From: a virus
IMG/VR virus record: IMGVR_UViG_3300045988_087149
Coordinates: 32,001-96,000 of that record
DNA: 64,000 nt
Strand: one strand, 5' to 3'
How positions within the stretch are numbered: the stretch's first letter is position 1; each line of letters opens with the position of its first letter. The notes under the pieces were generated by a model. The model had not been told where the DNA came from, did not search any database, and worked only from the letters and a program-made list of their open reading frames with translations. Position numbers and translations under genes: made by a program. Positions 27,085 through 55,968 of the stretch are shown here, piece after piece.

Positions 27085-27243
27085 TTAATTTTTCTTTTTT
27101 TCTGGTTCTGTTTTATTGATAGTCCAATATCGTTGGTTTAATATCGGTTCTGTAGTTGTTGTTCCTCTTAAAGAATAGCAATGATAACAATCGCCATCAC
27201 AATAAGCCCATCCTTCTCCGCATTTTCTCATCTGTATATCCAT
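27085..27243 (-). CDS. Cys-rich small protein (about 52 aa)
   Basis: CGEGWAYCDGDCYHC. Start set at ATG 27243, which overlaps the upstream TGA (TGATG). Confidence 0.4.
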   Translation of the reverse strand: MDIQMRKCGEGWAYCDGDCYHCYSLRGTTTTEPILNQRYWTINKTEPEKKKN

Positions 27244-28643
27244 CAGAACCATACCTTCTGATCTTGCTGAGTACATATAACCCTGCTTGATTTACCTTTT
27301 TTGATTAGATCGTCTTGTAGGGTATTGACAAATTCTACTTTGCTTGAAAATTCACTATGTACTAAGCACAATTTATCATAATTTATATTCTGATAATATT
27401 TCATTAGTTGGTTATAATTAGCATGAGATGAAAATGTATTTAAGCAATATATCTGAGCATTGTTCTGAATCAGCTCACCATCCAGCATGATTTCTTTTGC
27501 GCCATGCTTAATTTCATATGCAAGCGTATTAGGGCTAGCATATCCAGAGAATAGCACAGCATTGCGGCTATTAGGCAGGATGTATTTGAGATGCGCTAAA
27601 GCCCGTCCGGCATTAAGCATACCGCTACTAGCCACTATGATGGCTTGTTCATTTGATTGCTGAATAGCTTGGCTTTCTTCCCATGATTCAATTAGCCGCA
27701 AGTTGAGCTTATCTTCATAATCTAACTGATCTGACCATGCTCTATATATGCGGCAAGCAAGTGGCGAATCAAGATAAACAGGAATCATCTGCCCGTCAAT
27801 CTTGTGCTCTGTGGCTCGTGTACGCCATAGAACATCAAGAATATCCTCTACACGCTGTAAGCTAAAAGTTGGCATCAATATGCGATTATATTGGAATATA
27901 GCCGCATTGATAATCTGCTCATCATACCAGCGGTCTTTCTTCATGCTATAACATCTAGTCGGGTCACTATATGTACATTCACCAACCACCACGTTACATC
28001 TTGGCAATGGCTCGATTGGTGGTACAGATACGCTCTTAGCCTCTGTATTGAAATCACCTGTAAAGCCAATTCGCTTGATACTATAACCCTGTTTGATTTC
28101 CAACACAGCTTGAGCTGAATGGATGATATGACCGGCATGATAATATGTCAACTTTGCACCGCCTACAATGGTCGTAGGAACGCCAAACGGCACTTCAACA
28201 AGCCATTGCATTACCTTATCAATATCGGCCTCAGTAGCCAATGGCGGCGCTTTGATACCATGCTTATTCTGCATCTTTAGGCTATCCTGCGCCATAATTT
28301 TAATGCAATCATCCATCATTATCTTGAAGATAGGGATTGAGCCTTGAGGGATATAGATATAGGCTTGCATACCCATAGCAACAGCAGCAAGTAACCCAAG
28401 ACAATGATCGGTGTGTAGGTGGGTAATGACAACACCATGTACCGTCTTTGGCTTGATTTTCTTCATCTGGTCACGATTGGCGCGATAATCAGCCACTAGA
28501 TTATTAGTCTGAATTAGACCCATATCAACCGCTAATTTGATATTGTCGAATCGAACAATCGTACATGAACCAGTTACAGATGCGGCATTACCACCAATAA
28601 AATGCAAATATGGCTTGGATGTACCAGATGATTTAGCTGGCAT
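27243..28643 (-). CDS. metallo-beta-lactamase-fold nuclease (beta-CASP / RNase J-like)
   Basis: HxHxDH motif VITHLHTDHCLG and a long beta-CASP-sized C-terminal region. Start set to ATG 28643, because the track ATG is part of the SD (ATGAGGAGG). Confidence 0.75.
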   Translation of the reverse strand: MPAKSSGTSKPYLHFIGGNAASVTGSCTIVRFDNIKLAVDMGLIQTNNLVADYRANRDQMKKIKPKTVHGVVITHLHTDHCLGLLAAVAMGMQAYIYIPQGSIPIFKIMMDDCIKIMAQDSLKMQNKHGIKAPPLATEADIDKVMQWLVEVPFGVPTTIVGGAKLTYYHAGHIIHSAQAVLEIKQGYSIKRIGFTGDFNTEAKSVSVPPIEPLPRCNVVVGECTYSDPTRCYSMKKDRWYDEQIINAAIFQYNRILMPTFSLQRVEDILDVLWRTRATEHKIDGQMIPVYLDSPLACRIYRAWSDQLDYEDKLNLRLIESWEESQAIQQSNEQAIIVASSGMLNAGRALAHLKYILPNSRNAVLFSGYASPNTLAYEIKHGAKEIMLDGELIQNNAQIYCLNTFSSHANYNQLMKYYQNINYDKLCLVHSEFSSKVEFVNTLQDDLIKKGKSSRVICTQQDQKVWF

Positions 28644-28956
28644 TAGTAGCCTCCTCATCCTTTTTACCAGTTTGCATATACGCCCATGCTACTACATCAT
28701 CCCAATCACCCAGATTATCGAGATAATATGAGCTATATCCATCATATCCATCATCTAGCATACAAGTATCTTGCGATACATCACCACTTTTACCCAATAC
28801 TAGAATCTCTCTATTCTCATCTGGCAATTCACAGCTAAACATATAAAGAGGATATTCATATTCGGCCAAACCATCTTCAGCAAATCCTTCAATTTCTTCC
28901 TCAGTAGGTGGTCTAATCACAACCTTATGCCATACAATTTTTTCAATCCATTCCAT
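28633..28956 (-). CDS. hypothetical protein, DUF551-like (107 aa)
   Basis: MEWIEKIVWHKV... pattern; track ORF. Confidence 0.55.
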   Translation of the reverse strand: MEWIEKIVWHKVVIRPPTEEEIEGFAEDGLAEYEYPLYMFSCELPDENREILVLGKSGDVSQDTCMLDDGYDGYSSYYLDNLGDWDDVVAWAYMQTGKKDEEATNAS

Positions 28957-30596: not shown

Positions 30597-31436
30597 TTAA
30601 AAATTAACAACGCTCATTGCATTTACTGCACGCTGCTCAGTGCGCTTGATATATCTATTTGCTGTGATAGCAACTGAGCTATGCCCCATTGCCTTACTAA
30701 TGACCTCAATAGGCACATCGGCTTCAGACATCATAGTAGCAAATGTACGGCGCATGGTATGATTACTGATATGCAATTCCTCCCAATTCTCAATACCGGC
30801 TTTTCTCGCACATACTTTGAGCATTGCACTGGTATTCTTGCCATCCATTTTATTGCCACGATTGCCAACAAACAGATATTCACAGCCATCTTTGCGCTCA
30901 TTGGCAATATAGCTATCAATCAGCTTAATTGTCTCATCAGCCAAACCAACCAATCTATCCTTATCGCCCTTACCGCGAATGACCAGAACATTATTGCTAC
31001 GAGATTCGTACTGTTCAAGCGTAATATTGGCAAGCTCATGGATACGCAAGCCAGTCTGAGCAAGCATCATAATGATCGCCTTATTACGCTTATTAGTAGC
31101 CGCATTGACCATTGCCCTGACCTGTTCGCCATTAAGAGCCGATTGCTCACGATTCTTAATCTGTGGCGCTTCAAGCATCTCAGCCGGATTGCGGCTAATG
31201 AACTCGTTCCTATAAAGGAATTTGAAATATTCACGAACCGCAGACGTTCTCTGAGCAACAGATGCAGAGCTAAGATTACTCATGCTGGACTGCCACAGCT
31301 CAAGGTCAATCGGCTTGATTTCGATTTCAGGTTTATTGACATATGTCATGCAATTCTCAATCGCCTTAGTGTATTCTCTAATCGTTCCCTCACTACGGTG
31401 CTTTGCCTTGAGGCTCATAACAAACAGTTCATTCAT
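30597..31436 (-). CDS. tyrosine site-specific recombinase (XerC/D-like, short form)
   Basis: 279 aa. Catalytic signature LAQTGLRIHEL, HTMRRTFAT, GHSSVAITANRYI (R..HxxR..H..Y). Confidence 0.9.
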   Translation of the reverse strand: MNELFVMSLKAKHRSEGTIREYTKAIENCMTYVNKPEIEIKPIDLELWQSSMSNLSSASVAQRTSAVREYFKFLYRNEFISRNPAEMLEAPQIKNREQSALNGEQVRAMVNAATNKRNKAIIMMLAQTGLRIHELANITLEQYESRSNNVLVIRGKGDKDRLVGLADETIKLIDSYIANERKDGCEYLFVGNRGNKMDGKNTSAMLKVCARKAGIENWEELHISNHTMRRTFATMMSEADVPIEVISKAMGHSSVAITANRYIKRTEQRAVNAMSVVNF

Positions 31437-31438
31437 GT

Positions 31439-31630
31439 TTACACCTCCTCAACAACGCCCTTGTAACCATAACTGGTTTCAAATGAAGCCCAAGACTTGC
31501 AATTGCTTCTCGTGTACCAATGCGGCGTATAAACAAAATCTTCATCAGCATCAACGAGCTTACGAAGTGCGTCTCTGAGACAAGTCGCCTTAACAGTGTA
31601 CCACAAACCACGAATTTTGAAGTTTCTCAT
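31439..31630 (-). CDS. hypothetical phage protein (63 aa)
   Basis: Start moved to ATG 31630 (MRNFKIRG), which has AAGGAG 10 nt upstream. The track start lies upstream of the predicted transcription start site of promoter 31660-31688. Confidence 0.5.
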   Translation of the reverse strand: MRNFKIRGLWYTVKATCLRDALRKLVDADEDFVYTPHWYTRSNCKSWASFETSYGYKGVVEEV

Positions 31631-31659
31631 AATATTCAGCTCCTTCATTTGATGATTTA

Positions 31660-31688
31660 AGTATAGCACCATAGCGGCGATTTGTCAA
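31660..31688 (-). promoter_or_regulatory. sigma-A-type promoter (leftward)
   Basis: cTTGACAAAT (31688-31683), 17 bp, TATACT (31665-31660). Confidence 0.65.
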
Positions 31689-31702
31689 GAGTTATTTTTA
31701 GA

Positions 31703-31736
31703 AAAATCCCTATAATCTTTCGACCATAGGGATTTT
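31703..31736 (-). terminator. intrinsic terminator after the HU gene
   Basis: 11-bp perfect stem AAAATCCCTAT/ATAGGGATTTT with a 12-nt loop. On the minus strand it ends in UUUU. Confidence 0.65.
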
Positions 31737-31750
31737 AACAGGAGGATTAT

Positions 31751-32026
31751 TTACTCATTGATTTCTGCCTTTAGTGTGCTTGTCGGCTTAAACGTCAGAG
31801 CATACTTAGCAGGAACTTCAATGGTTTCACCGGTCTGTGGATTACGAGCCGTTCTTGCATCACGCATCTTGGTTGTGAACTTGCCAAAGCCATGAATCAC
31901 CACATCTTCATGCTGAACTAGGCTATGTCTGATATAGTCAATGAACGTATCTACGATCTCAGTTGTATCCTTGACCGTATTTTCTGTGCTGTCTGCAACA
32001 AACTTGACGATTTCTTTCTTGGTCAT
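31751..32026 (-). CDS. hup: HU-type DNA-binding protein (DNABII)
   Basis: 91 aa. MTKKEIV...GFGKFTT..RDARTARNPQTGETIEVPA...FKP is the canonical HU pattern. Confidence 0.9.
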   Translation of the reverse strand: MTKKEIVKFVADSTENTVKDTTEIVDTFIDYIRHSLVQHEDVVIHGFGKFTTKMRDARTARNPQTGETIEVPAKYALTFKPTSTLKAEINE

Positions 32027-32639
32027 AAATTCCTTTTAGTTTCCTTTCAATTTCTAATAAAATTTTATTAAAACAAGTCGCAATGTTCATGCGCATATTG
32101 ACTTGATATATAGGGTTATTGTTCCACTATCAACTACTTACAGGGTCCTCTTACCCAAGCCTTATATTGTTTAGTGGGTTTACAGCCGCTACATCACTAA
32201 ACTAATTTTTTTTGCGTCGAACTCGACACGTCATTTATCCTTGGACTTAATGACGATTTCAGTAATGCGCGGAATAGGCAATCACCGCGCTATGAGTCTG
32301 TAGCCGACTACTCTTTGTGCTTTCTACTTTGAAGCCCGTCAACCTTGAACATTCCGGACTATTCAAGGATTTTTAGAATTTCTACACTCCCTACAAATTC
32401 ATGTTAAATTGAATTTACAGTTGCGCAACCATCTTAAAATCAAGAGTGTGGCGGCGTTGCCTTATAGTATCAGGTGGTCAACCGTCAGCTATTCAGCAAC
32501 TAGCATTACAACCCATAAACTAGACCATTTGCAAGCGACCAACTCTTGGCCTTGGCCTTACAAAGCTAGGATTTTCAGCTTTTCCTCCAGACGTCTATCA
32601 AGTGTGCTTACAATGCTAGTAGAGGCATGATAGACGTTT

Positions 32640-32710
32640 TGACCGAGGCGGGACTTGAACCTGCATTCATCTGCTATGAACAGCTCGCTTACCAGTTAGC
32701 TGACTCAGTC
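32640..32710 (-). tRNA. tRNA-like gene, anticodon CAU (Met/Ile2-type), imperfect cloverleaf, no encoded CCA
   Basis: Acceptor GACTGAG/CTCGGTC, anticodon loop UUCAUAG, T-loop TTCAAGT. It has an extra nt before the D stem and mismatches in the anticodon and T stems. Confidence 0.5.
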
Positions 32711-32804
32711 ATATGGAAATGGGCTTTAAGCATCAACCCATTAGAAGCGTTGGATTCCTATTCAGTTTATTAAGTCGTATGTATCCAACAACCAGTGGAC
32801 TTAA

Positions 32805-32881
32805 TGGTAGCTCAGGTGGAATTCGAATCCACACTTTACGGATTTTGAATCCGCTCCCTCTGCCGATTGGGGTACTGAGCC
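32805..32881 (-). tRNA. tRNA, anticodon CAA (Leu codon UUG) on a short-variable-arm (class I) body, CCA encoded
   Basis: Acceptor GGCTCAG/CTGAGCT (G1-U72), anticodon arm GCGGA-UUCAAAA-UCCGU, 5-nt variable loop, T arm GTGGA-TTCGAAT-TCCAC, then A73-CCA. Confidence 0.65.
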
Positions 32882-33357
32882 ATATTATCTCAAGCCGACT
32901 TCCTACCTCATAGCTATTTCTAGCATCGACTCGTGAATGATGTTTACATAATATCCTTATATCACCTTTGCCGTTATGTTTTTGCCCTCATGCTAACGGA
33001 ACACGCTCAGGCGCGACCCCAATTCTCTAGTCTGTATCTGCCGCTTCTCAAACTCTGCGCAGACCCGCTTCACAGGCGTGATATAGATTTGACGGTTATC
33101 TTCAAATCCGGTCGGATATTATATTATTTGTCAATCTCAATCCCTTTCATTATGCCGAACAGATTGGCCGGTGCGCCCTACTTGGCATCACGGTCTTTCG
33201 CACGACTGCGACCCGCTTTCATGCTTATCTCATTTGTCTTACGCACGTTCCCTATATAATGATGGCTGTTCCTCAAACTCCACTTAGCTGTTTCGTAACG
33301 CCCATCTGAACCATGTCAGGACTCAGCGATTTCAGCACCATCATCTTTACCTTCTCA

Positions 33358-33386
33358 ATTATACCATATTTGATTTTATTTGTCAA
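33358..33386 (-). promoter_or_regulatory. sigma-A-type promoter (leftward) driving the non-coding/tRNA unit
   Basis: AAAAATAATGcTTGACAAAT (33386-33381), 17 bp, TATAAT (33363-33358). Confidence 0.7.
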
Positions 33387-33523
33387 GCATTATTTTTGCA
33401 ATCAACATCCCAACTGCAATACCAGCCGCAAATGAACCTAGACAAGATAGTATAATAATCATACACTAATAATCAATAAATTCTCCTAAACTCTTTACCC
33501 TACAACTTACCCTACTTAATCAA

Positions 33524-33763
33524 CTAATCTGAATTTTCTTCATTATTAATCAATGATTTTTTTGCCATACGAGCTGATTTGAGCCGTTCTGCCGCAGCTT
33601 GTTTCTGTTCATCGGTCATTGAGCGGGTACGGAATGGATTGTTGCCTAGGCGAAATGGGTACAGATTGCAATCATGGATAACACAATTCTTTACTTCATA
33701 AGCTGAGCCACAACTACATTCCAAACAATGCTGGCGAATGGCTTTTAATGGAGATTTTTCCAT
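33524..33763 (-). CDS. zinc-ribbon protein (79 aa)
   Basis: CLECSC...C..HDC, with GAGGTGA upstream. It is one of only four ORFs I saw that end in TAG. Confidence 0.55.
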   Translation of the reverse strand: MEKSPLKAIRQHCLECSCGSAYEVKNCVIHDCNLYPFRLGNNPFRTRSMTDEQKQAAAERLKSARMAKKSLINNEENSD

Positions 33764-33781
33764 ATTATCACCTCATTCTCA

Positions 33782-34039
33782 TCAAGCATTATAGCTTGAA
33801 CATACGATGTATGGCTTATCTACGTTAAGATTTACTTCTTCAATATGAATTTCACCTTGAAAATCCTCAAAATCAATACGATCTTCATAATTATTATTTC
33901 CACCCACATCAACGACACGACAGTTATACTCATCGATGCTAATACGATTTCTGATTTCATCTTCGCTGTTTGCTACACACACAAATGAATCATAAGTGCC
34001 ATAATCACATTTGTCTACCCATACTTTGAATACTTTCAT
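33782..34039 (-). CDS. hypothetical phage protein (85 aa)
   Basis: GAGGTGATAAT upstream of the ATG; follows the tRNA. Confidence 0.55.
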   Translation of the reverse strand: MKVFKVWVDKCDYGTYDSFVCVANSEDEIRNRISIDEYNCRVVDVGGNNNYEDRIDFEDFQGEIHIEEVNLNVDKPYIVCSSYNA

Positions 34040-34070
34040 ATTATCACCTCGTTATATTTAGATTTTATCA

Positions 34071-34163
34071 TGGTAGCGGCGCAGAGGGTCGAACTCTGAT
34101 TTTGCCCCAATCTAGAGCTAAACTGGGTATAGGCCAGCTGGCTTACCATTAACCGACACCGCC
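34071..34163 (-). tRNA. tRNA-like gene with long variable arm (class II body), anticodon loop CCUAUAC (UAU by standard numbering, C33), CCA encoded
   Basis: Acceptor GGCGGTG/CGCCGCT (G1-U72), D arm GGTT-AATGGTA-AGCC, anticodon stem GCTGG/CCAGT, 23-nt variable region with a GCTC/GGGC stem, T arm CAGAG-TTCGACC-CTCTG, then A73-CCA. Confidence 0.6.
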
Positions 34164-34265
34164 ATTTTCGTTTGAGCCTTTTATCGTCATGCTCAGGACT
34201 ATATTCTAGGAGGTTCACAATGAAGAACTGTAATTGAGATTACCCAATCTCTCAACCACATCTGT

Positions 34266-34294
34266 ATTATACCATAAGATTTGCTGTTTGTCAA
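34266..34294 (-). promoter_or_regulatory. sigma-A-type promoter (leftward) in front of the tRNA
   Basis: GAAAAATAATTcTTGACAAAC (34294-34289), 17 bp, TATAAT (34271-34266). Confidence 0.7.
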
Positions 34295-34731
34295 GAATTA
34301 TTTTTCAACTTTTTTAATGCTTCATCAAGCACGGCATTTTCATATCCATAACCAACCATCTCTGGTTTAATTTTAGTAATGGAATTTACACTCATTAAGT
34401 ATGATAAAATTTCAGCGTCTTTTTGTTTTTTATCATCTAGTTCTTTACATTTTTTCAAATATTCTTGATAATATTGCTCTTTTACTTCATTTGAAGCATC
34501 AATTCTCTTTTTGACTCTTGCTTTAAGATAGCTTAATACAGACCTATCTAGATGACTGTAGCATTCGGCGCAAACCCAATCATACACAAGTCCAGCCGGT
34601 TCATCTGGTTCCCATTCAATTTCGTCATATACTTCCATATATCCATGATGCCGTTCAACAGTCTTTCTTTTCATTTTAATCGGCTTACCACATAACGCAC
34701 AATCGCAATACCCCTTATATACAAAGCTCAT
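34291..34731 (-). CDS. hypothetical protein with zinc-ribbon-like Cys pairs (146 aa)
   Basis: CDCALCGK ... CAECY, with GGAGGTG upstream. Confidence 0.6.
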   Translation of the reverse strand: MSFVYKGYCDCALCGKPIKMKRKTVERHHGYMEVYDEIEWEPDEPAGLVYDWVCAECYSHLDRSVLSYLKARVKKRIDASNEVKEQYYQEYLKKCKELDDKKQKDAEILSYLMSVNSITKIKPEMVGYGYENAVLDEALKKLKNNS

Positions 34732-45429: not shown

Positions 45430-45879
45430 TTAATCAATCCTTTCTTCAGCAATTCCATCAGCCGTACTATAGCAGATATGCTTAATTCCCAATTCTTTTA
45501 TATATTTCATACAAGCAGGACATGGGCGCGCCATTGCTTTGTTCCCATTTGCATATTCACGATATACATATAGTGTCGATTTGCTAAAATCAATGTCCAG
45601 ATATTTTACTTTGTTCAATGCCCTGATTTCAGCATGAAGCGAATTTACCACGCCACTCTGATTGGGGTCAAATTCACGCTCTGCATTAAGCCGCTTCTGC
45701 AACGGGCTTGTTTTAGTGCTATTGCATCCTGTAGCAAGTAATACACCCTTATAATACAGAGCTGCGCCAAGATGGTATCTGGGAAATTCAGATTCTTTGC
45801 TTGCTCTACAAGCTGATTCAATGCCGCGCTTAGTTCTCTGATTCATTTGATTCTTTATGTTCTTCATCAAGCCAATCAA
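45430..45879 (-). CDS. dCMP/cytidine deaminase-family zinc enzyme
   Basis: HAEIRAL plus PCPACMKYI, the CDA-fold zinc ligands. Confidence 0.85.
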   Translation of the reverse strand: MIGLMKNIKNQMNQRTKRGIESACRASKESEFPRYHLGAALYYKGVLLATGCNSTKTSPLQKRLNAEREFDPNQSGVVNSLHAEIRALNKVKYLDIDFSKSTLYVYREYANGNKAMARPCPACMKYIKELGIKHICYSTADGIAEERID

Positions 45880-45998: not shown

Positions 45999-46181
45999 CT
46001 ACACCTCGCCTTTAATTAAGTATTTGTGACATTTACAGATAATATCAATAGCTCTTTCGGCTGGAAAGAAATTAGCAAATCTCTCGTCAAAAATACCGTA
46101 TTTCACAAAATCTGCTTTATCATCTACTTCAGCTTGCTTAAACATCTCTACCGCATCATTAAGTCTGATATAAACAGCCAT
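45999..46181 (-). CDS. hypothetical protein (60 aa)
   Basis: Track ORF. Ends in TAG, followed two codons later by TAA. Confidence 0.45.
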   Translation of the reverse strand: MAVYIRLNDAVEMFKQAEVDDKADFVKYGIFDERFANFFPAERAIDIICKCHKYLIKGEV

Positions 46182-46723
46182 TATTCATCCACCTCATATC
46201 CCAATTCAATCAACGTCATAATAGCATAATTAGCCATATCAAGCAACGTGTCCTCAATCTTTTCGTCTTTGACTTGAGCATCATATGATACAGCAAGTGA
46301 CATGAGCCGATTCATCTTATCACTAAGACGGGTCACAGCGCTGATAATGCCGAGCTTTTTGTATGTATCGCCAAACGAATCACCATAATCATGATTCTTT
46401 GCTTTATACACCTGATTGAGCTTCTGACAGATTGCGTAATGCTGCGCTACCTTGGGTTCGATATTCGACTTGAAATCATCGGGTTCTTTGTTGCAACATT
46501 CAGCTTCAGCATTTTCACAAGCTGCTGAGTCTAGTTCTTTATACCAGTTATAACACTTATTGAGCATATCATCGCTCATTCCATCAAATGCGCATCCACG
46601 CTCATTTGTAAAAAGATTTACTTCTTCGTCGTACAAATTTTTTAATTCACAATTATCACATTTTTCATATATGCCACAATACCATTCAAGTGTATTAACT
46701 TTTTCTGCTCTTGTCATACTCAT
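46181..46723 (-). CDS. DUF1599-type protein with Cys-rich N-terminal extension
   Basis: The KNHDYGDSFGDTYKKLGI...RLSDKMNRL pattern resembles DUF1599 (from memory). Confidence 0.55.
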   Translation of the reverse strand: MSMTRAEKVNTLEWYCGIYEKCDNCELKNLYDEEVNLFTNERGCAFDGMSDDMLNKCYNWYKELDSAACENAEAECCNKEPDDFKSNIEPKVAQHYAICQKLNQVYKAKNHDYGDSFGDTYKKLGIISAVTRLSDKMNRLMSLAVSYDAQVKDEKIEDTLLDMANYAIMTLIELGYEVDE

Positions 46724-47258: not shown

Positions 47259-48419
47259 TTATTCATTCTCCTCATTTTCATCACAATCTTCATCTACAAA
47301 ATGGACATCTACGTTAAAAAATTCTTTTAGTACATCAATAGCCTCTTTTGGCTCGATGCGGAAAAATTCTCTATCAGGGTTGACCCGCTCTTTGTCAAAA
47401 TATTTATGGATATTATTTTCTAGCTCAAAACAGTCATCGCTAAATACGAAGCAATGAGCGTGGTACGGTTCTGGCAAGCTGCTTGAGCTAAGTTCGCGCA
47501 CTCTCAATGCAGGATTCAATCTTCTAGTACAACCGAGCTTCACCAATCCGGGTAGACTAGGTGAACTAATGACATATAGCCAACCAGCCTTACTATGCGA
47601 CTCACGATAAGCAATAGAATCAAGCCGCTTATCAATACTAGCTAATTGAGATTTAATCCTATTGCGCTCATCATCTGTTAACGCCTTATCAAACGCAATA
47701 TTCATTGCTTTCTTTTCTTCTAGCAACTTGGCGCGTTCTCTAGCAATATCAGCAAGCAACTGTTCTTGCTCTCTCAATCTGCGCTTTTCTTCACGGATTC
47801 GCGCTTTTTCTTCTTTCTGCTTGACTTTGATAGCCAAGTTAATATCGAGCATATCAAGCCGCGCCTTTACATATTCAGCATTAAGCGCCAATCCGACCTT
47901 ATTTGCTTTAGACTGATAAGAATTAAATTTATTCTTAATCAATTCTTTGCTCTTAGCAATATTGCCTGTTGTTACAGATTTTTCTTTGCTGTCAATATAT
48001 CCTGACATAGCATAGCACAATCCGCGCCCATATACATCCTGCATTTCTTTTCCACGTCTGTCTGAGCCGTTTAGCGTATATCCTTGCTCAATGCGATACA
48101 AGCCAGTGTTCGCAGCAGATTCAATTTTGCTTTGCAGCTCATAACGCTTATGCTCAAGTTCATCTAGCGAATCCTGATAATATGGAATATTATAATCCTG
48201 CATTTCTTCAATGGCATGGATTTTACCATTTAGAGCATCAAGAACGGATTGAGCCGTTTTTGCAGATCGCATGGTGTTTTCATATTGATGCGCAGCAATT
48301 TGACGATGTTCATCATAGTTATCAATTTCTGCTTGCATACTAGAAATATCTGCTTTGAGTTGAGCAATCTGCTCTTCAAGCTCTTTCTTCTTCTTGTTCA
48401 GCTTGAAAGTCTCGAACAT
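47259..48419 (-). CDS. DUF4041 coiled-coil + T5orf172 (GIY-YIG-like) domain protein
   Basis: C-terminal GWLYVISSPSLPGLVKLGCTRR...RVRELS...FRIEPKEAI resembles T5orf172. Start moved to ATG 48419, with AAGGAGG 9 nt upstream. Confidence 0.65.
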   Translation of the reverse strand: MFETFKLNKKKKELEEQIAQLKADISSMQAEIDNYDEHRQIAAHQYENTMRSAKTAQSVLDALNGKIHAIEEMQDYNIPYYQDSLDELEHKRYELQSKIESAANTGLYRIEQGYTLNGSDRRGKEMQDVYGRGLCYAMSGYIDSKEKSVTTGNIAKSKELIKNKFNSYQSKANKVGLALNAEYVKARLDMLDINLAIKVKQKEEKARIREEKRRLREQEQLLADIARERAKLLEEKKAMNIAFDKALTDDERNRIKSQLASIDKRLDSIAYRESHSKAGWLYVISSPSLPGLVKLGCTRRLNPALRVRELSSSSLPEPYHAHCFVFSDDCFELENNIHKYFDKERVNPDREFFRIEPKEAIDVLKEFFNVDVHFVDEDCDENEENE

Positions 48420-48606
48420 GCTTAGCCGCCTCCTTGCCAAAAATCTTGTCTATATGCTTATCAAAATCCAACGGATTATTGCTTTTTGCTAAAATCTGCT
48501 TAGTGCTGGTATTATATAGCTCGAATTGACCATTGCCGCAATTATTGATAATCCAGCCAGTATCGCCATATTGGACTATGGCGTTAATTTTCTTTGTTCT
48601 TGGCAT
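48376..48606 (-). CDS. hypothetical protein (76 aa), first gene of the accessory operon
   Basis: AAGGTGA upstream; short leader from promoter 48627-48655. Confidence 0.5.
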   Translation of the reverse strand: MPRTKKINAIVQYGDTGWIINNCGNGQFELYNTSTKQILAKSNNPLDFDKHIDKIFGKEAAKHVRDFQAEQEEERA

Positions 48607-48981: not shown

Positions 48982-49125
48982 TTGTGGAGCGAAATGAGCT
49001 ATAACTGGTATGTATCGAAAGATACGGAGCCAGAAGTATGGGATGATGAATATGAGCCAACTGAGCGTGATTGGGCGCTTTGGATATATGGTAGTTCAGA
49101 GAATGAATTAGAGGTGATTTTTTGA
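48982..49125 (+). CDS. small acidic protein (43-47 aa), coupled to the RNAP gene
   Basis: GGAGGTG upstream of TTG 48982 and ATG 48994. The stop TGA overlaps the TTG start at 49122 (TTGA). Confidence 0.4.
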   Translation: MWSEMSYNWYVSKDTEPEVWDDEYEPTERDWALWIYGSSENELEVIF

Positions 49126-50723
49126 GCCTACAGACGCAAATTTATTTGCATTCAGTGGACACGTCATGTTTTTATGACGACAACGAAATGGCACTACATA
49201 GACGGCTTGTTCGGTTATATTCGTTGCGCAAGCGATGGAAGGATGATGGTAAACCAGATTGGCACATCAAGTCTGTAAATCGTTTGCTTAAAAAAGAAAA
49301 GGCGCGACTATCTGAATTGCTTGATAATGCTGTGAGTCGAAATGTAACTAGAGAATTGCGTCAAGATGCTGTGACCGATAAGACGGTTGTTAATTTATTT
49401 GAATCTGATCTAACGCGAAGCTTAGGGCTTGAGCCATTCAAGTTGACCGATGAACTATTCATCATTAACGTGTTTTTCTTTCAAGTATTTAACAATCTAG
49501 TTCATCAAGGATTTATCTACAATGGTGAAAAATATTTGTTCCTTACAGCATCAGCAGGACAGATAAGGACGAAACGAGCAGTATTCGTTAAAGAATCGTC
49601 GTTTAAGCGCATTGAGCAAAAATTGATGTGCGGCTTGACCATAGACGAAATCAATGAGCGGGGAGGCATGAATCAGAATAAATTCCTTGCTTATTTGGCG
49701 CTTATGAACTCTGCTACAGATGTTTGGCAAGATTTTGACATTGACAAATCAGTTGTAGTAGATGATTGGGAAACAGCTGTTCCGGGATTGGTTGACCACA
49801 TTGATGGCGTATCGTATGAGATTCGGCGCGAAATGACAGAGACAATGATTCCTCATATGGACGGATGCGGCATCATGCTTAATGAAACAACAAGAATGGT
49901 GCGTATGCCATGGGTAAAGGGATTACTTGTTACATTTCCATTTGACAAGTTTATCAAAGAGAAATGCGGAGGTGAAGCGACTGTAATAGATATTTATGGC
50001 TATGAGCATAAAATCATAGAGGAAGATATACGGTATATATTTACAAAGAGCCAATTCAAGCTATGGAAATTTTATGATTCGTGGGATTGCTATAAGGCGC
50101 GATTCAAAAATTTTGGATGTAATGCCTGTTATTGCAATATAGAAGAGCCTTATATTCCAAAGAGCCGCATCAACTATCAGATGCTTCAAACATTGAGCGA
50201 TATGACTGATAATGAGATCGACCGCATCGTTTCTAAGACTGCACAAGAGATTGATGATGTTGGCAAAGATTATCAAGTTACTATGCGGCTACTTGGCGCA
50301 ACAGAGAACAACCGTTATAAGTCGGCCATGCAAGAGGCGTTGTTGATATATCCTGAGTTGTTTAAGGATTCATATAATCGAGAAATTCTGAAGCAGACTA
50401 AAAAGAGTTTAGTAAAGCAAGCTAAGGGCGGGCGGCTTAGAGTAAATGGTAAATACCTTTTTTTAGCGCCTGACCTATATGCGTTTTGTGAATGGTTGTT
50501 CCTAGGCGAACAAAACCCGCAAGGATTGCTTGCAGATGGTGATGTATATACAAACCAATATCGAGATGAAGAAACGTTGGCTTGTTTGCGTTCGCCGCAT
50601 CTATATCGAGAATGGGCAATCAGGACAAATCGACGCAGCTTAGAGCTTGATTATTGGTTTGGTGGAACTAAGTGTATATATACTAGCTGTCATGATTTAA
50701 TCAGTAGATACTTAATGTTCGAT
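49122..50723 (+). CDS. YonO-like single-subunit (two-barrel) RNA polymerase, exon 1
   Basis: 534 codons from a TTG start (GAGGTGA upstream), ending ...SRYLMFD. Joins exon 2 to give MFD-CDGDKALVV, a beta-prime-like DxDGD motif. Total length is about 857 aa. Confidence 0.6.
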
Positions 50724-51690
50724 TAGTTAGTCGCAGTCGAACCCTATGGAAACATAGGGATATAAAACGGTGTGAAGGCGTAAATGCGCCATGTCAGAAA
50801 TGGCAACGGGGAAAGTGAGTGCAACCCCGTAGGAAATAGAATGAATGAATTATTAAACTATAAGGAGGTGGAAAAATGTATAAAGAAGGAATTTATTGCC
50901 GTTGTGCATATCGAGTAAATGAAAATGGAGATTGTTATACACAAAATGGCAAATTTGAGTGGGTACATAGAGAGTGGCGATATAACAGTGATGGGTATGC
51001 TGTTGTATCAGCTTGTGGTCTAAAGCCAGACGGTACTAAGACATTCCGCTCACTTCATGTTCATGTATTAGTTGCGAGAGAATTTGTTGATGGATGGTTT
51101 GAAGGCGCAGAAGTAAATCATAAAGATTTTAACCGTGCTAATCCTGCTTGGTGGAATCTTGAGTGGTTAAGTCATAAAGATAATATTGCTTATTCGCATA
51201 ACGCTGGTAATTATAAAGGGCGGTTTGGTGAGGACAATCCAAACTATGGTAATGACACGCTACACAAGAGATACGTCGCCGAGCCTGAATTTGCCAAAGA
51301 AAAGCAGTCTCGGCCAAGAGGACAAAATGGACGTTCTGTGAAATGCTTATTATATTGTCATCAAAATATGTGTTTTGAGCATTGGTTTGATTGCCAGCGC
51401 GACGCAGTTGATTTTCTTATTGACTATAATGTCGTAAAATCAACTTGTAATAAAGAGAGTATAATTAGCAAGCTGAAACAAGAAGATGGATATAAGGGCT
51501 GGCATCTTATTCAAGATAAATAATTCATTCATTTAAAACCTCTATCGACTATCGAAAGGATATAAATCAACCGTGTGGGTTGATTTAGAATAACTGAGTA
51601 GAGTAGGAAATGGGTGAAATTCCCATCTCCGAAGCGCACCGAGCCTAAACGGGAAACCGCATGGTTATGATATAGTCAGTAACTCCTACG
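50724..51690 (+). mobile_element. group I intron with internal HNH endonuclease ORF
   Basis: P1 forms between exon GTTCGAT (50717-50723) and intron GTCGAAC (50736-50742), with a U-G pair at the splice site. A GAAA-capped hairpin lies at 50743-50758. The last intron nt is G (51690). Further perfect stems occur at 51570-51590 and 51610-51635. Confidence 0.7.
50876..51523 (+). CDS. HNH homing endonuclease (intron-encoded)
   Basis: 215 aa with AAGGAGGTG upstream. HNH core VHVLVAREF...EVNHKDFNRANPAWWNLEWLSHKDNI. Confidence 0.8.
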   Translation: MYKEGIYCRCAYRVNENGDCYTQNGKFEWVHREWRYNSDGYAVVSACGLKPDGTKTFRSLHVHVLVAREFVDGWFEGAEVNHKDFNRANPAWWNLEWLSHKDNIAYSHNAGNYKGRFGEDNPNYGNDTLHKRYVAEPEFAKEKQSRPRGQNGRSVKCLLYCHQNMCFEHWFDCQRDAVDFLIDYNVVKSTCNKESIISKLKQEDGYKGWHLIQDK

Positions 51691-54897: not shown

Positions 54898-55968
54898 ATG
54901 GAATTGCGGCTAATATCTGCGGATTTAGTCTTGGCTTGGGGATGTGTTCTACAAGTTCCATAATAGAGGAAAAGCCTGAACGCTTTTCGCTGTCATATGA
55001 CAGAATTTATCTTATCGGTAGCGTCAGTTGCAAATGGCGCTACCACCCTTAAATTGATTCATTCTCTACTAGGTGATAGCTACGGCTGTGTTGATCATGC
55101 TTGTGGGGCGATTGACCCACCTAGCAGAGTTGAATATAATCGAGCCGTAATCTGCAATTCAGCAGAGCCTAATACGAGCATGACATTGGTTGTGGCGGGC
55201 TATGTCAATATAGTATCGTAAACTGTATCGGCTCAGTTTTCATCTCGACCACGCAATCTCTAAAGTATCCCGTTTAAGTGAGCAACGGCGAATCTGTAAA
55301 TGGGCGTGTTGGAGATTTATAACCGACAAAATCTTATTCATCCTGCCTTTCTCGAATCCTTGCGTTTATACGTGGGGTATTGATGTAGAGAGGGTGGGTA
55401 TTCATCTCATGTACCATGCGTACAAGGAGTTCTTGAAGTCGTTAATAGCGGCTTTTGCAAAATCCTATCCTAGACGATAGGCGTATAGCAACATGTGTGT
55501 TATATGAGCGTATGAAGCATAGAACCGGGTTGTCTTTCGGCAATATGTGGACGTTTACATTGGGTTTTCAGCATACCGCAAGGCAACAAGAAAATGCTGA
55601 CCGACTATGCGGTAAAGATGGGACAACAGGTATCATAGGAGCCAATGACGAACCATATAAAACATAACAGGGAGTGGCGCTCGATACCGGCATGCGCTTG
55701 ATAAATACCGGACATTAATGAGTCCATAGGTAAGGACGTTAAAACTGCCTGTCGCTACTACTCATTGGCGGCTATGAATATCCGAAAGGAGGTCACTATT
55801 CTCTTGAATTATCCACTGGTTTATCCGAAGCATAATTAAAGAAAGGATGGTGGTCAGAGCCCATTGGCTCATATCTACAATAAGCCCAACTCAATGGGAA
55901 CTGTTGTTTAACTGAATATTGTACATTGACAAATACGAAGCAGCTGAGAGCAATCTTGGCTGCTTCGT
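54898..55968 (+). ncRNA. about 1.07-kb structured non-coding RNA candidate
   Basis: All three frames are saturated with TAA, TAG and TGA, and there is no SD-preceded ORF. Visibly GC-richer than the flanks. Perfect helices at 54990-55003, 55017-55044, 55464-55481 and 55860-55898. Bounded by a promoter and a hairpin. Confidence 0.55.
55935..55968 (+). terminator. terminator-like hairpin closing the non-coding RNA locus
   Basis: Perfect 10-bp stem ACGAAGCAGC/GCTGCTTCGT with a 14-nt loop. The following U-tract is weak (CATATTTAT). Confidence 0.45.

Follow-up and report, generated by a model that had tools for sequence, protein, structure and literature searches.

A clade-restricted phage locus of tRNA genes and conserved structured RNA modules upstream of an HU gene

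Phage transfer RNA (tRNA) islands are known to harbour enigmatic RNAs, among them GOLLD, ROOL and the species I and II RNAs of T4. The tRNA cluster of T4 gives a primary transcript of about 1.75 kb that yields eight tRNAs and the species I and II RNAs; the cluster carries the segB homing endonuclease, and its content varies among T4 relatives (PMC2330249). In GOLLD, the 3' region is conserved and the 5' region less so, the linker sometimes contains tRNAs, and the RNA assembles into a homo-oligomeric nanocage (PMC12286853). ROOL is highly structured, has no associated protein and is found in phages and prophages near tRNA islands (PMC5737381, PMC12286853). In Staphylococcus phage K, a lytic phage of Firmicutes, abundant long non-coding RNAs (lncRNAs) lie beside tRNA genes, and the authors compared them with GOLLD and ROOL (PMC9241854). 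Here, we analyzed a 64,000-nucleotide (nt) stretch of viral DNA (IMG/VR record IMGVR_UViG_3300045988_087149, positions 32,001 to 96,000; hereafter the window) and, within it, the minus strand of 32027-33386, a unit that runs from an early promoter through two tRNA genes to the gene of an HU-family DNA-binding protein. The unit combines a promoter, tRNAs, the lack of a conserved open reading frame (ORF), covarying minus-strand structure, modular mosaicism and clade restriction. It is a clade-specific variant of the phage tRNA/non-coding RNA (ncRNA) operon, real, conserved and structured, and it is neither GOLLD nor ROOL. We consider it probable that the unit is an accessory early operon of reshuffled, clade-restricted RNA domains that likely act in trans. 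The features of the locus are listed below, from the promoter to the terminator.

33358-33386, minus strand: early promoter, TTGACA-17-TATAAT with an extended -10 TG, 12/12 match
33254-33351, minus strand: 5'-terminal stem domain, 16 pairs, 99% canonical in 12 sequences
33128-33253, minus strand: M4, a GCAU/AUGC helix, a swapped hairpin cap and then a GUCAAUC/GAUUGAC stem, from the alignment of relatives
32949-33125, minus strand: M5, a 177-nt seven-helix domain, from covariation and the covariance model CM R1
32882-32948, minus strand: M6, the leader element before tRNA slot 1, 15 pairs, 4 with double changes
32805-32881, minus strand: tRNA-Leu (CAA) with encoded CCA, from ARAGORN and Rfam (56.6 bits)
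32712-32804, minus strand: inter-tRNA spacer with a hairpin of 15 pairs, 100% canonical in 14 sequences
32639-32711, minus strand: tRNA-Met (CAU), marginal, from ARAGORN and Rfam (33.5 bits)
32585-32638, minus strand: M8, a long hairpin directly after tRNA 2, 15 pairs, 2 with double changes
32365-32584, minus strand: 3' structured domain of M9 (32453-32584) and M10 (32365-32452), from covariation
32173-32364, minus strand: further hairpins of M11 (32266-32364, 7 sequences) and M12 (32173-32265, 2 sequences)
32027-32172, minus strand: M13, the constant region upstream of HU with the HU ribosome-binding site, from alignment and folding
31751-32026, minus strand: HU gene, downstream of the unit and probably co-transcribed, PF00216 and phrog_379
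31703-31736, minus strand: intrinsic terminator after HU, from folding energy and UUUUU

An earlier reading of the letters alone (the sequence-only reading) had placed a consensus early promoter at 33358-33386, firing leftward, and a promoter scan found all 12 of the 12 consensus positions there. Transcription would start near 33351, and the first 53 nt from the promoter were 90-96% conserved in relatives. A short way upstream there are three further promoters with 12/12 matches (34294, 34772 and 35005), and the region of 33-35 kb is the early region of the phage, dependent on host RNA polymerase. The segment lengths were close to those first proposed, with a 5' block of about 470 nt, an inter-tRNA spacer of 93 nt and a 3' block of 612 nt, so divided that about 1,080 of 1,325 nt are non-tRNA. 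A terminator scan of the unit revealed no terminator-like site inside it. The earlier claim that no terminator precedes HU, and that the first lies at 31703-31736, thus stands for strong terminators, but a weak hairpin followed by UUUU is present at 32073-32105, about 50 nt ahead of the HU start (fold -10.6 kcal/mol, z = -1.7). The terminator after HU folds at -19.3 kcal/mol (z = -5.3) and is followed by UUUUU. The HU gene itself was assigned by PF00216 (E = 1.6e-30) and phrog_379, and no good sigma-70-type promoter for it was found by scan and sequence inspection. Because a strong terminator and a good promoter of this type are both lacking, co-transcription of the unit with HU is plausible; owing to the weak hairpin and its U-run, read-through is likely rather than certain, and it is plausible without being required for HU.

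We listed ORFs of at least 25 amino acids (aa) on both strands of the unit. The longest ORF on the transcribed strand had at most 37 aa, and the ORFs of the opposite strand had no Pfam or PHROGs match and broke up in relatives. The absence of an ORF preceded by a Shine-Dalgarno sequence, noted earlier, was borne out for conserved ORFs; one 23-codon ORF (33344-33273) lies 6 nt past GAAGG, and it is not conserved, because GAAGG is changed to GAATG in relatives and the frame diverges after about 7 codons. Insertions and deletions among relatives were not multiples of three. The unit therefore has no conserved ORF.

In its layout, the unit is comparable with the T4 cluster. Both have one promoter, a precursor of about 1.3-1.75 kb (in the unit, without an internal terminator and with continuity judged from sequence) and several tRNAs together with non-tRNA structured RNAs; in both, the tRNA content varies between close relatives and a homing endonuclease gene lies inside in some genomes. 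The likeness concerns layout, and processing of the precursor is only presumed here. Unlike in T4, the non-tRNA part dominates, with at least eight modules as opposed to two small RNAs, and the unit would read into the HU gene. T4 is a Gram-negative myovirus and this is a gut phage with Firmicute-type promoters, and a sequence relationship is not expected. With the phage K lncRNAs the unit shares a long non-coding stretch beside tRNA genes in a phage that probably infects Firmicutes, a likeness of genomic context; unlike those, the stretch has no homologue in any GenBank phage except for its tRNA-Leu.

The variation of content became apparent upon comparison with relatives, which are numbered with the prefix L. 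The HU protein led to 26 IMG/VR loci on contigs of about 50-100 kb (77-99% HU identity), and a conserved 23-nt motif led to 44 more human-gut metagenome loci, about 70 in all. In alignments to these relatives the unit broke at sharp, recurring breakpoints, which delimit discrete modules. Among about 60 distinct arrays the module order was always the same and the subset differed in almost every genome; modules and tRNAs were gained, lost or swapped between near-identical phages, and some arrays contained extra non-coding inserts of about 164, 290 or 315 nt. Slot 1, which always follows M6, held Leu-CAA, Leu-TAA, Ile-TAT, Val-TAC, Phe-GAA, Gly-TCC, Met or nothing, while slot 2 held Met, Thr, Ile, Leu-TAG or nothing. 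Only the last 80-150 nt or so before HU were constant, and M8, M9, M10, M11 and M12 were each absent from many arrays. L026 kept M4, M9 and M11b with no tRNA detected. L007, L008 and L019 lacked the promoter and the whole array and kept HU with the 36 nt at 32073-32108. Genes of HNH_3 (NUMOD1/NUMOD4) homing endonucleases lay inside the arrays of some relatives and adjoined tRNA slots (L004:4660-5217 and L007:4835-5383; also in L008), and such enzymes probably drive the mosaic recombination of the array; the array of the window itself has no HNH_3 gene.

The structural evidence was most extensive for M5, for which 42 distinct sequences of three sequence lineages were aligned. The consensus fold obtained by RNAalifold contained seven helices and 37 pairs, and 99.5% of the cells paired canonically. 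Compensatory double changes were present in 12 pairs, with 0 of 500 column shuffles as good, and pairing fell to 32-46% when the partners were slid by 1-3 columns. The helices include P1 (AUAUCC/GGAUAU), P2 (GAUUUGA/UCAAAUC) with the invariant loop AGAUAACCG, and P3 (AUAUCAC/GUGAUAU); the domain has another invariant loop, AGAGUUUGAGA. P2 corresponds to the 7-base-pair (bp) helix at 33086/33102 listed in the sequence-only reading, every helix of which was found in the sequence. CM R1, the covariance model of M5, found exactly one copy in the window (209.5 bits) and detected a divergent 132-nt paralogue in L004 and L013, which retained P1-P3, the loop AGAUMACCG and the GAGUUKGAGAAG motif despite many compensatory changes. 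With the paralogues included, 17 of the 37 pairs covaried.

Support for the other modules was weaker or mixed. The stem of the 5' domain forms between AUGAUGG(U)GCUG, close to the start of the RNA, and CAGCCAUCAU, some 60 nt further on; the enclosed interior is replaced in relatives. The cap hairpin of M4 was present in five versions among relatives, counting none; M4 showed a single compensation (GAAU/AUUC), and its RNAalifold support was weak because most of its pairs are invariant. M6 consists of a 9-bp stem around a GCUA-GAAA-UAGC hairpin and a near-invariant 14-nt purine strand, UAUGAGGUAGGAAG, with many C-to-U wobble changes. Its end lies within a few nt of tRNA slot 1, flush with it in the window, and it was found 5' of Leu, Ile, Val, Phe, Gly or Met tRNAs, or of no tRNA. 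The leader hairpin of the spacer, S2 (AUGGG(N)CCCAU, 32712-32746), lies directly ahead of tRNA slot 2 in the arrays.

On the 3' side of the tRNAs, M8 has 10 perfect bp and 13/15 overall; its 10-bp helix (32591-32600/32628-32637), one of those listed earlier, belongs to a 15-nt inverted repeat. M9 and M10 contain a hairpin AAAGCU/AGCUUU with the loop GAAAAUCCU, then a variable hairpin, then GUUGCU/GGCAAC and AUAGC/GCUAU split by a tandem GA, and a stem GCCACACUC/GAGUGUGGC. Compensatory changes were found in three pairs of helix 1 and five of helix 2, while helices 4 and 5 were 98-99% paired with wobble-compatible changes only; M9 had eight pairs with double changes in all. A loop-loop pseudoknot in M9 (UGGUCA with UGACCA) was considered and dropped, as the columns are nearly invariant and gave no support either way. 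The hairpins of M11 and M12 (CCUUGAA/UUCAAGG, GCGCGG/CCGCGC and CGUCAUU/AAUGACG) were present in some relatives only, and their homologues were too few to judge, with just one other distinct sequence of M12. M13 has a covarying hairpin in which GGGU/ACCC becomes GGC/GCC or GGU/ACC in relatives, and M8, the spacer hairpin and M13a showed one or two compensations each.

Across modules, G-U far exceeded A-C in the predicted pairs, at ratios of 122:5, 179:12 (M9) and 109:3, which assigns the structure to the minus-strand RNA. In the most distant relatives, the third codon positions of HU were 53-58% identical and the modules were better preserved (M5 89%, M6 93-95%, M10 90-91%). The case for structure is a comparative one and does not rest on the number of helices, because the folding energies of the single sequence were unexceptional (z = +0.25 for the 5' block, no better than shuffled, and a moderate z = -2.58 for the 3' block). 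The proposal of a protein-free structured unit thus held up insofar as its non-tRNA parts are conserved and backed by covariation.

Several short sequences recur in the unit. The 9-nt repeat AAGCGGGUC, reported earlier at 33062-33070 and 33210-33218, is real, but it is not conserved and carries no meaning, because chance alone should give about three pairs of this kind in 1.36 kb and each copy sits in a hairpin that is exchanged in other relatives. GAUUUKAAGAU is found exactly twice in the 64 kb, at 32431-32441 in M10 and at 33098-33108 in P2 of M5 (both minus strand), each time on the 5' side of a hairpin; this pair may go back to an old duplication within the unit, or the two sites may share a binding motif. 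The first 9 nt of the M5 loop AGAGUUUGAGA (33047-33057, minus strand) are the same as AGAGUUUGAUC, which we take to be the universal 5' end of bacterial 16S ribosomal RNA (rRNA), primer 27F, and a similar GGAGUUUGAGGA is present at 33270-33278 (minus strand) in the 5' stem domain. The resemblance of the M5 loop to the 16S rRNA end may be a coincidence.

Both tRNA-like cloverleaves proposed earlier were recovered by ARAGORN and the Rfam tRNA model (RF00005). tRNA-Leu(CAA) encodes its CCA, whereas tRNA-Met(CAU) does not, has one mismatch in the anticodon stem and is called marginal because it scored 33.5 bits against a gathering score of 29. We also observed a third tRNA, Ile(UAU), at 34071-34163 (minus strand; 42.8 bits), with its own perfect consensus promoter at 34266-34294 (minus strand). 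It is 93 nt long owing to an insertion of about 20 nt in the variable region, a length of about 90-95 nt being kept in most relatives, and it represents either a tRNA-Ile with an unusually long arm or a tRNA into which an element was inserted. In slot 2 of three relatives (L005:5384-5457, L010:5384-5457 and L009:5411-5484), one tRNA-like body with a poorly paired anticodon stem carried the anticodon TAT, TAC or TGT and was named Ile, Val and Thr by ARAGORN; the slot-2 bodies covered by the Rfam scan (L005 and L006) were under the tRNA gathering score. This body may have switched its anticodon, or it may be a tRNA mimic that is under pressure to diversify.

Known RNA families were searched with Rfam 15, at the gathering score on the whole window and at E<=10 on the 3.2 kb of 31400-34600; 17 relatives were scanned as well, 5 at E<=1 and 12 at the gathering score. 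Apart from tRNAs and noise hits, no family matched the unit even at E<=10, and the models of riboswitches, T-box, hammerhead, twister, pistol, hatchet and HDV had no match in 31400-34600 at that threshold. The relatives yielded tRNAs and a single RAGATH-33 RNA (RF03102; L022:4123-4235, 139.9 bits against a gathering score of 120.4), which has identical copies in L023 and L100 and lies, in these three, in an insert of about 376 nt between the 5' stem domain and M4. RAGATH motifs were discovered close to genes that accompany twister and hammerhead ribozymes, often on DNA derived from phages. The modules are, like RAGATH-33, small structured RNAs, and RAGATH-33 fills a slot of the same array; unlike it, the window has no match to RF03102, and no module matched any RAGATH or self-cleaving ribozyme model. 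A link to the ncRNA arrays of UG27 reverse transcriptases in gut viruses (bioRxiv 10.64898/2026.09.22.753630) was also considered and set aside, as the modules are mutually unlike and not repeated units; of the 86 window ORFs of at least 90 aa, about 20 were scanned against Pfam, and no reverse transcriptase was found among them.

Beyond the clade, the unit was not recovered. A blastn search of its 1,360 nt against 50,697 GenBank phage records matched only the tRNA-Leu; exact and degenerate motif scans of IMG/VR returned the same clade only; the 18 extra loci found with a relaxed M6 motif were all coding or chance matches lacking the hairpin; and CM R1 matched none of 27 unrelated HU-bearing phage loci. 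Two module motifs were absent from 185,579 representative bacterial genomes, and therefore no integrated copy was detected there. The modules are new clade-restricted RNA families, although a catalogue of 10,006 viral candidate RNAs (PMC10690425) may already list individual ones.

Taken as an accessory early operon, the unit would work as follows. A host sigma-A-type consensus promoter at 33386 would drive one long precursor with, in order, a protective 5' stem, M4, M5, M6, tRNA-Leu, the spacer with its leader hairpin, tRNA-Met and M8-M13, and transcription, meeting no strong terminator, would run on into HU. Host RNase P and RNase Z would excise the two tRNAs and leave the precursor in three pieces, namely a 5' RNA of about 470 nt, the spacer, and a 3' RNA in which M8-M13 form the 5' portion of the HU mRNA. 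The domains would fold independently and be individually dispensable, and insertion, deletion and allele replacement would reshuffle them, probably with a contribution from homing-endonuclease-driven recombination as in the T4 tRNA cluster. From the start of infection they would act as separate stable trans-acting RNAs in host take-over or counter-defence, and might serve, alongside the phage tRNAs, as decoys or sponges that capture RNA-binding proteins or nucleases of the host. We infer that trans-acting accessory roles are more likely than pure spacer or processing roles, because modules persist where tRNAs are missing, their folds are elaborate and their loops invariant, each of them is dispensable and the set is hypervariable even among phages that are nearly identical, and an immediate-early promoter precedes them.

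A number of observations weigh against this interpretation. The homologues all come from one narrow clade at 70-99% identity, with many invariant pairs, so that the covariation reflects few independent events or lineages, and shuffle tests overstate significance for related sequences. Mosaic recombination complicates the comparison of modules with HU, and the high module identity may in part reflect recent recombination; in L002, M5 was 71% identical where HU was 97% identical at the amino-acid level. The folding energy of the 5' block and the hairpin with its U4 ahead of HU point the same way, the latter against read-through. Transcript continuity, co-transcription, processing and RNA stability are all predictions from the DNA. 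Homing-endonuclease recombination could explain the mosaicism without an arms race, and no observation speaks directly for decoys or for counter-defence.

A more far-reaching version of the accessory operon, which we put forward only tentatively, is an RNA-only accessory island, in which an immediate-early promoter would precede an array of hypervariable slots. The slots would hold exchangeable tRNAs, RNAs that resemble tRNAs but have mutated anticodons, and eight or more autonomous kinds of structured RNA, each a trans-acting effector. The effectors could be decoys or inhibitors of host RNases or defence proteins, or small ribozymes, and new classes among them could include M5, and RAGATH-33 in relatives.

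Among the alternatives, the one that fares best, although we regard it as rather unlikely, holds that the non-tRNA parts are cis-acting leaders, spacers and trailers that guide processing by RNase P, Z, III or Y and stabilize or tune the HU mRNA, with no function once released. The positions of the elements agree with it, in that M6 and the S2 hairpin are always directly 5' of a tRNA slot, M8 is directly 3', the 5'-terminal stem is typical of transcript stabilizers in Firmicutes, and M13 is constant upstream of HU. However, about 1,080 nt of conserved multi-helix domains far exceed the needs of known processing signals, and the seven-helix architecture of M5, with its invariant loops and retained paralogue, speaks against a spacer. 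The persistence of M4, M9 and M11b in L026 and the dispensability of the modules for HU in L007, L008 and L019 also argue against a purely local role.

We consider it improbable that the unit is a regulatory 5' untranslated region of HU, working by attenuation, by autoregulation through binding of HU to the structured RNA or by coupling to tRNA processing. The unit is always immediately upstream of HU, for which no good sigma-70-type promoter was found, and the weak hairpin and U-run lie ahead of the ribosome-binding site; moreover, HU-family proteins bind structured RNAs, as HBsu does with the Alu domain of small cytoplasmic RNA. Yet M13 is the only constant part, everything farther upstream differs between relatives or is missing from them with HU still 77-99% conserved, and riboswitch, T-box and leader families were unmatched. 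The leader coupling tRNA production to HU expression that the sequence-only reading had named as its second option is weakened in particular, because three relatives (L007, L008 and L019) keep HU without the unit, one (L026) keeps modules without a detected tRNA, and only the last 80-150 nt or so before HU are constant.

The first option of that reading, a GOLLD- or ROOL-type RNA, was not supported. Like GOLLD, the unit is large and phage-encoded, adjoins or contains tRNA genes, and has a variable 5' region with the tRNAs before the 3' region; a total of about 1.3 kb with many helices and a layout of 5' block, tRNAs and 3' block in a phage do resemble GOLLD (PMC12286853). Like ROOL, it is protein-free, highly structured and situated in a phage beside tRNAs. 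However, the GOLLD and ROOL covariance models matched neither the window at E<=10 nor any of the 17 relatives. In contrast to GOLLD, the unit has no universal 3' domain, since only the last 80 nt or so before HU are common to all members and each of the modules M9 to M12 is missing from many arrays; and whereas ROOL is a single conserved multi-pseudoknot fold of about 580 nt, the unit consists of separable domains of 55-180 nt. Long-range pairing between the blocks was unsupported, and the parts were independently present or absent in relatives, which speaks against one large obligate RNA. That the unit acts, and perhaps oligomerizes, as a single ornate molecule is accordingly quite improbable.

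Finally, a DNA-level element (a replication origin, a recombination hot spot or an integron-like array served by the tyrosine recombinase at 30597-31436) is highly improbable, since the Phage_integrase-family gene about 600 nt downstream of HU and the sharp cassette-like borders of an array that follows a strong promoter are outweighed by strictly collinear module order, the absence of a recurrent attC-like repeat at the borders, a co-oriented recombinase with two genes between it and the array, covarying helices whose many G-U pairs would be A-C mismatches on the other strand, and bona fide tRNA genes behind a consensus promoter; an integron-like cassette array, which would have repeated attC-type sites and an adjacent, divergently oriented IntI, was rejected because border repeats are lacking and the order is collinear. 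The recombinase itself (279 aa, 30597-31436, minus strand) has a Phage_integrase domain and an N-terminal SAM-like domain, and it may be an Xer-like resolvase rather than an integrase.

The phage is an uncultured human-gut phage of about 90 kb, probably with a Firmicute host, and its DnaE-type polymerase is at most 39% identical to the enzymes of Bacillus and Geobacillus siphophages. Several other features of the window were observed. A 534-aa protein (49122-50726, plus strand) matched the Pfam family RdRP (PF05183; 30.4 bits against a cut-off of 23.8), which in phages comprises single-subunit RNA polymerases of the YonO type; if the phage used such an enzyme for its non-early genes, this would agree with the consensus host-type promoters at 33-35 kb. 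A beta-CASP/RMMBL nuclease of the metallo-beta-lactamase fold (471 aa, 27243-28658, minus strand) could be an RNase J-like processor of phage RNA or a DNA repair nuclease. Three neighbouring genes (45430-45879, 46181-46723 and 47259-48440, all minus strand) encode dCMP-deaminase-like, DUF1599 ('nucleotide modification associated domain 1') and T5orf172 proteins and hint at modified DNA bases. Such bases would be of interest beside a phage HU gene; TF1 of SPO1 is an HU-type protein that binds hydroxymethyluracil DNA. In the plus-strand part of the window, a candidate structured RNA of the DUF3800-VIII family (RF03075) is present at 55337-55404 (46.0 bits against a gathering score of 40.2).

The clade offers a natural dissection experiment, in which about 60 near-isogenic genomes carry differing subsets of domains and tRNAs in fixed slots behind one early promoter. 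It also provides several compact new folds of 55-180 nt with covariation support, which can be synthesized for tests of self-cleavage, protein binding and oligomerization. If the domains are only processing scaffolds, the locus is an ordinary, though elaborate, tRNA operon. If the RNA-only island is real, it would parallel, at the level of RNA, the anti-defence islands of protein genes that lie in phage early regions, and if the domains act in trans, RNA-based phage accessory islands would be a class worth a systematic search.

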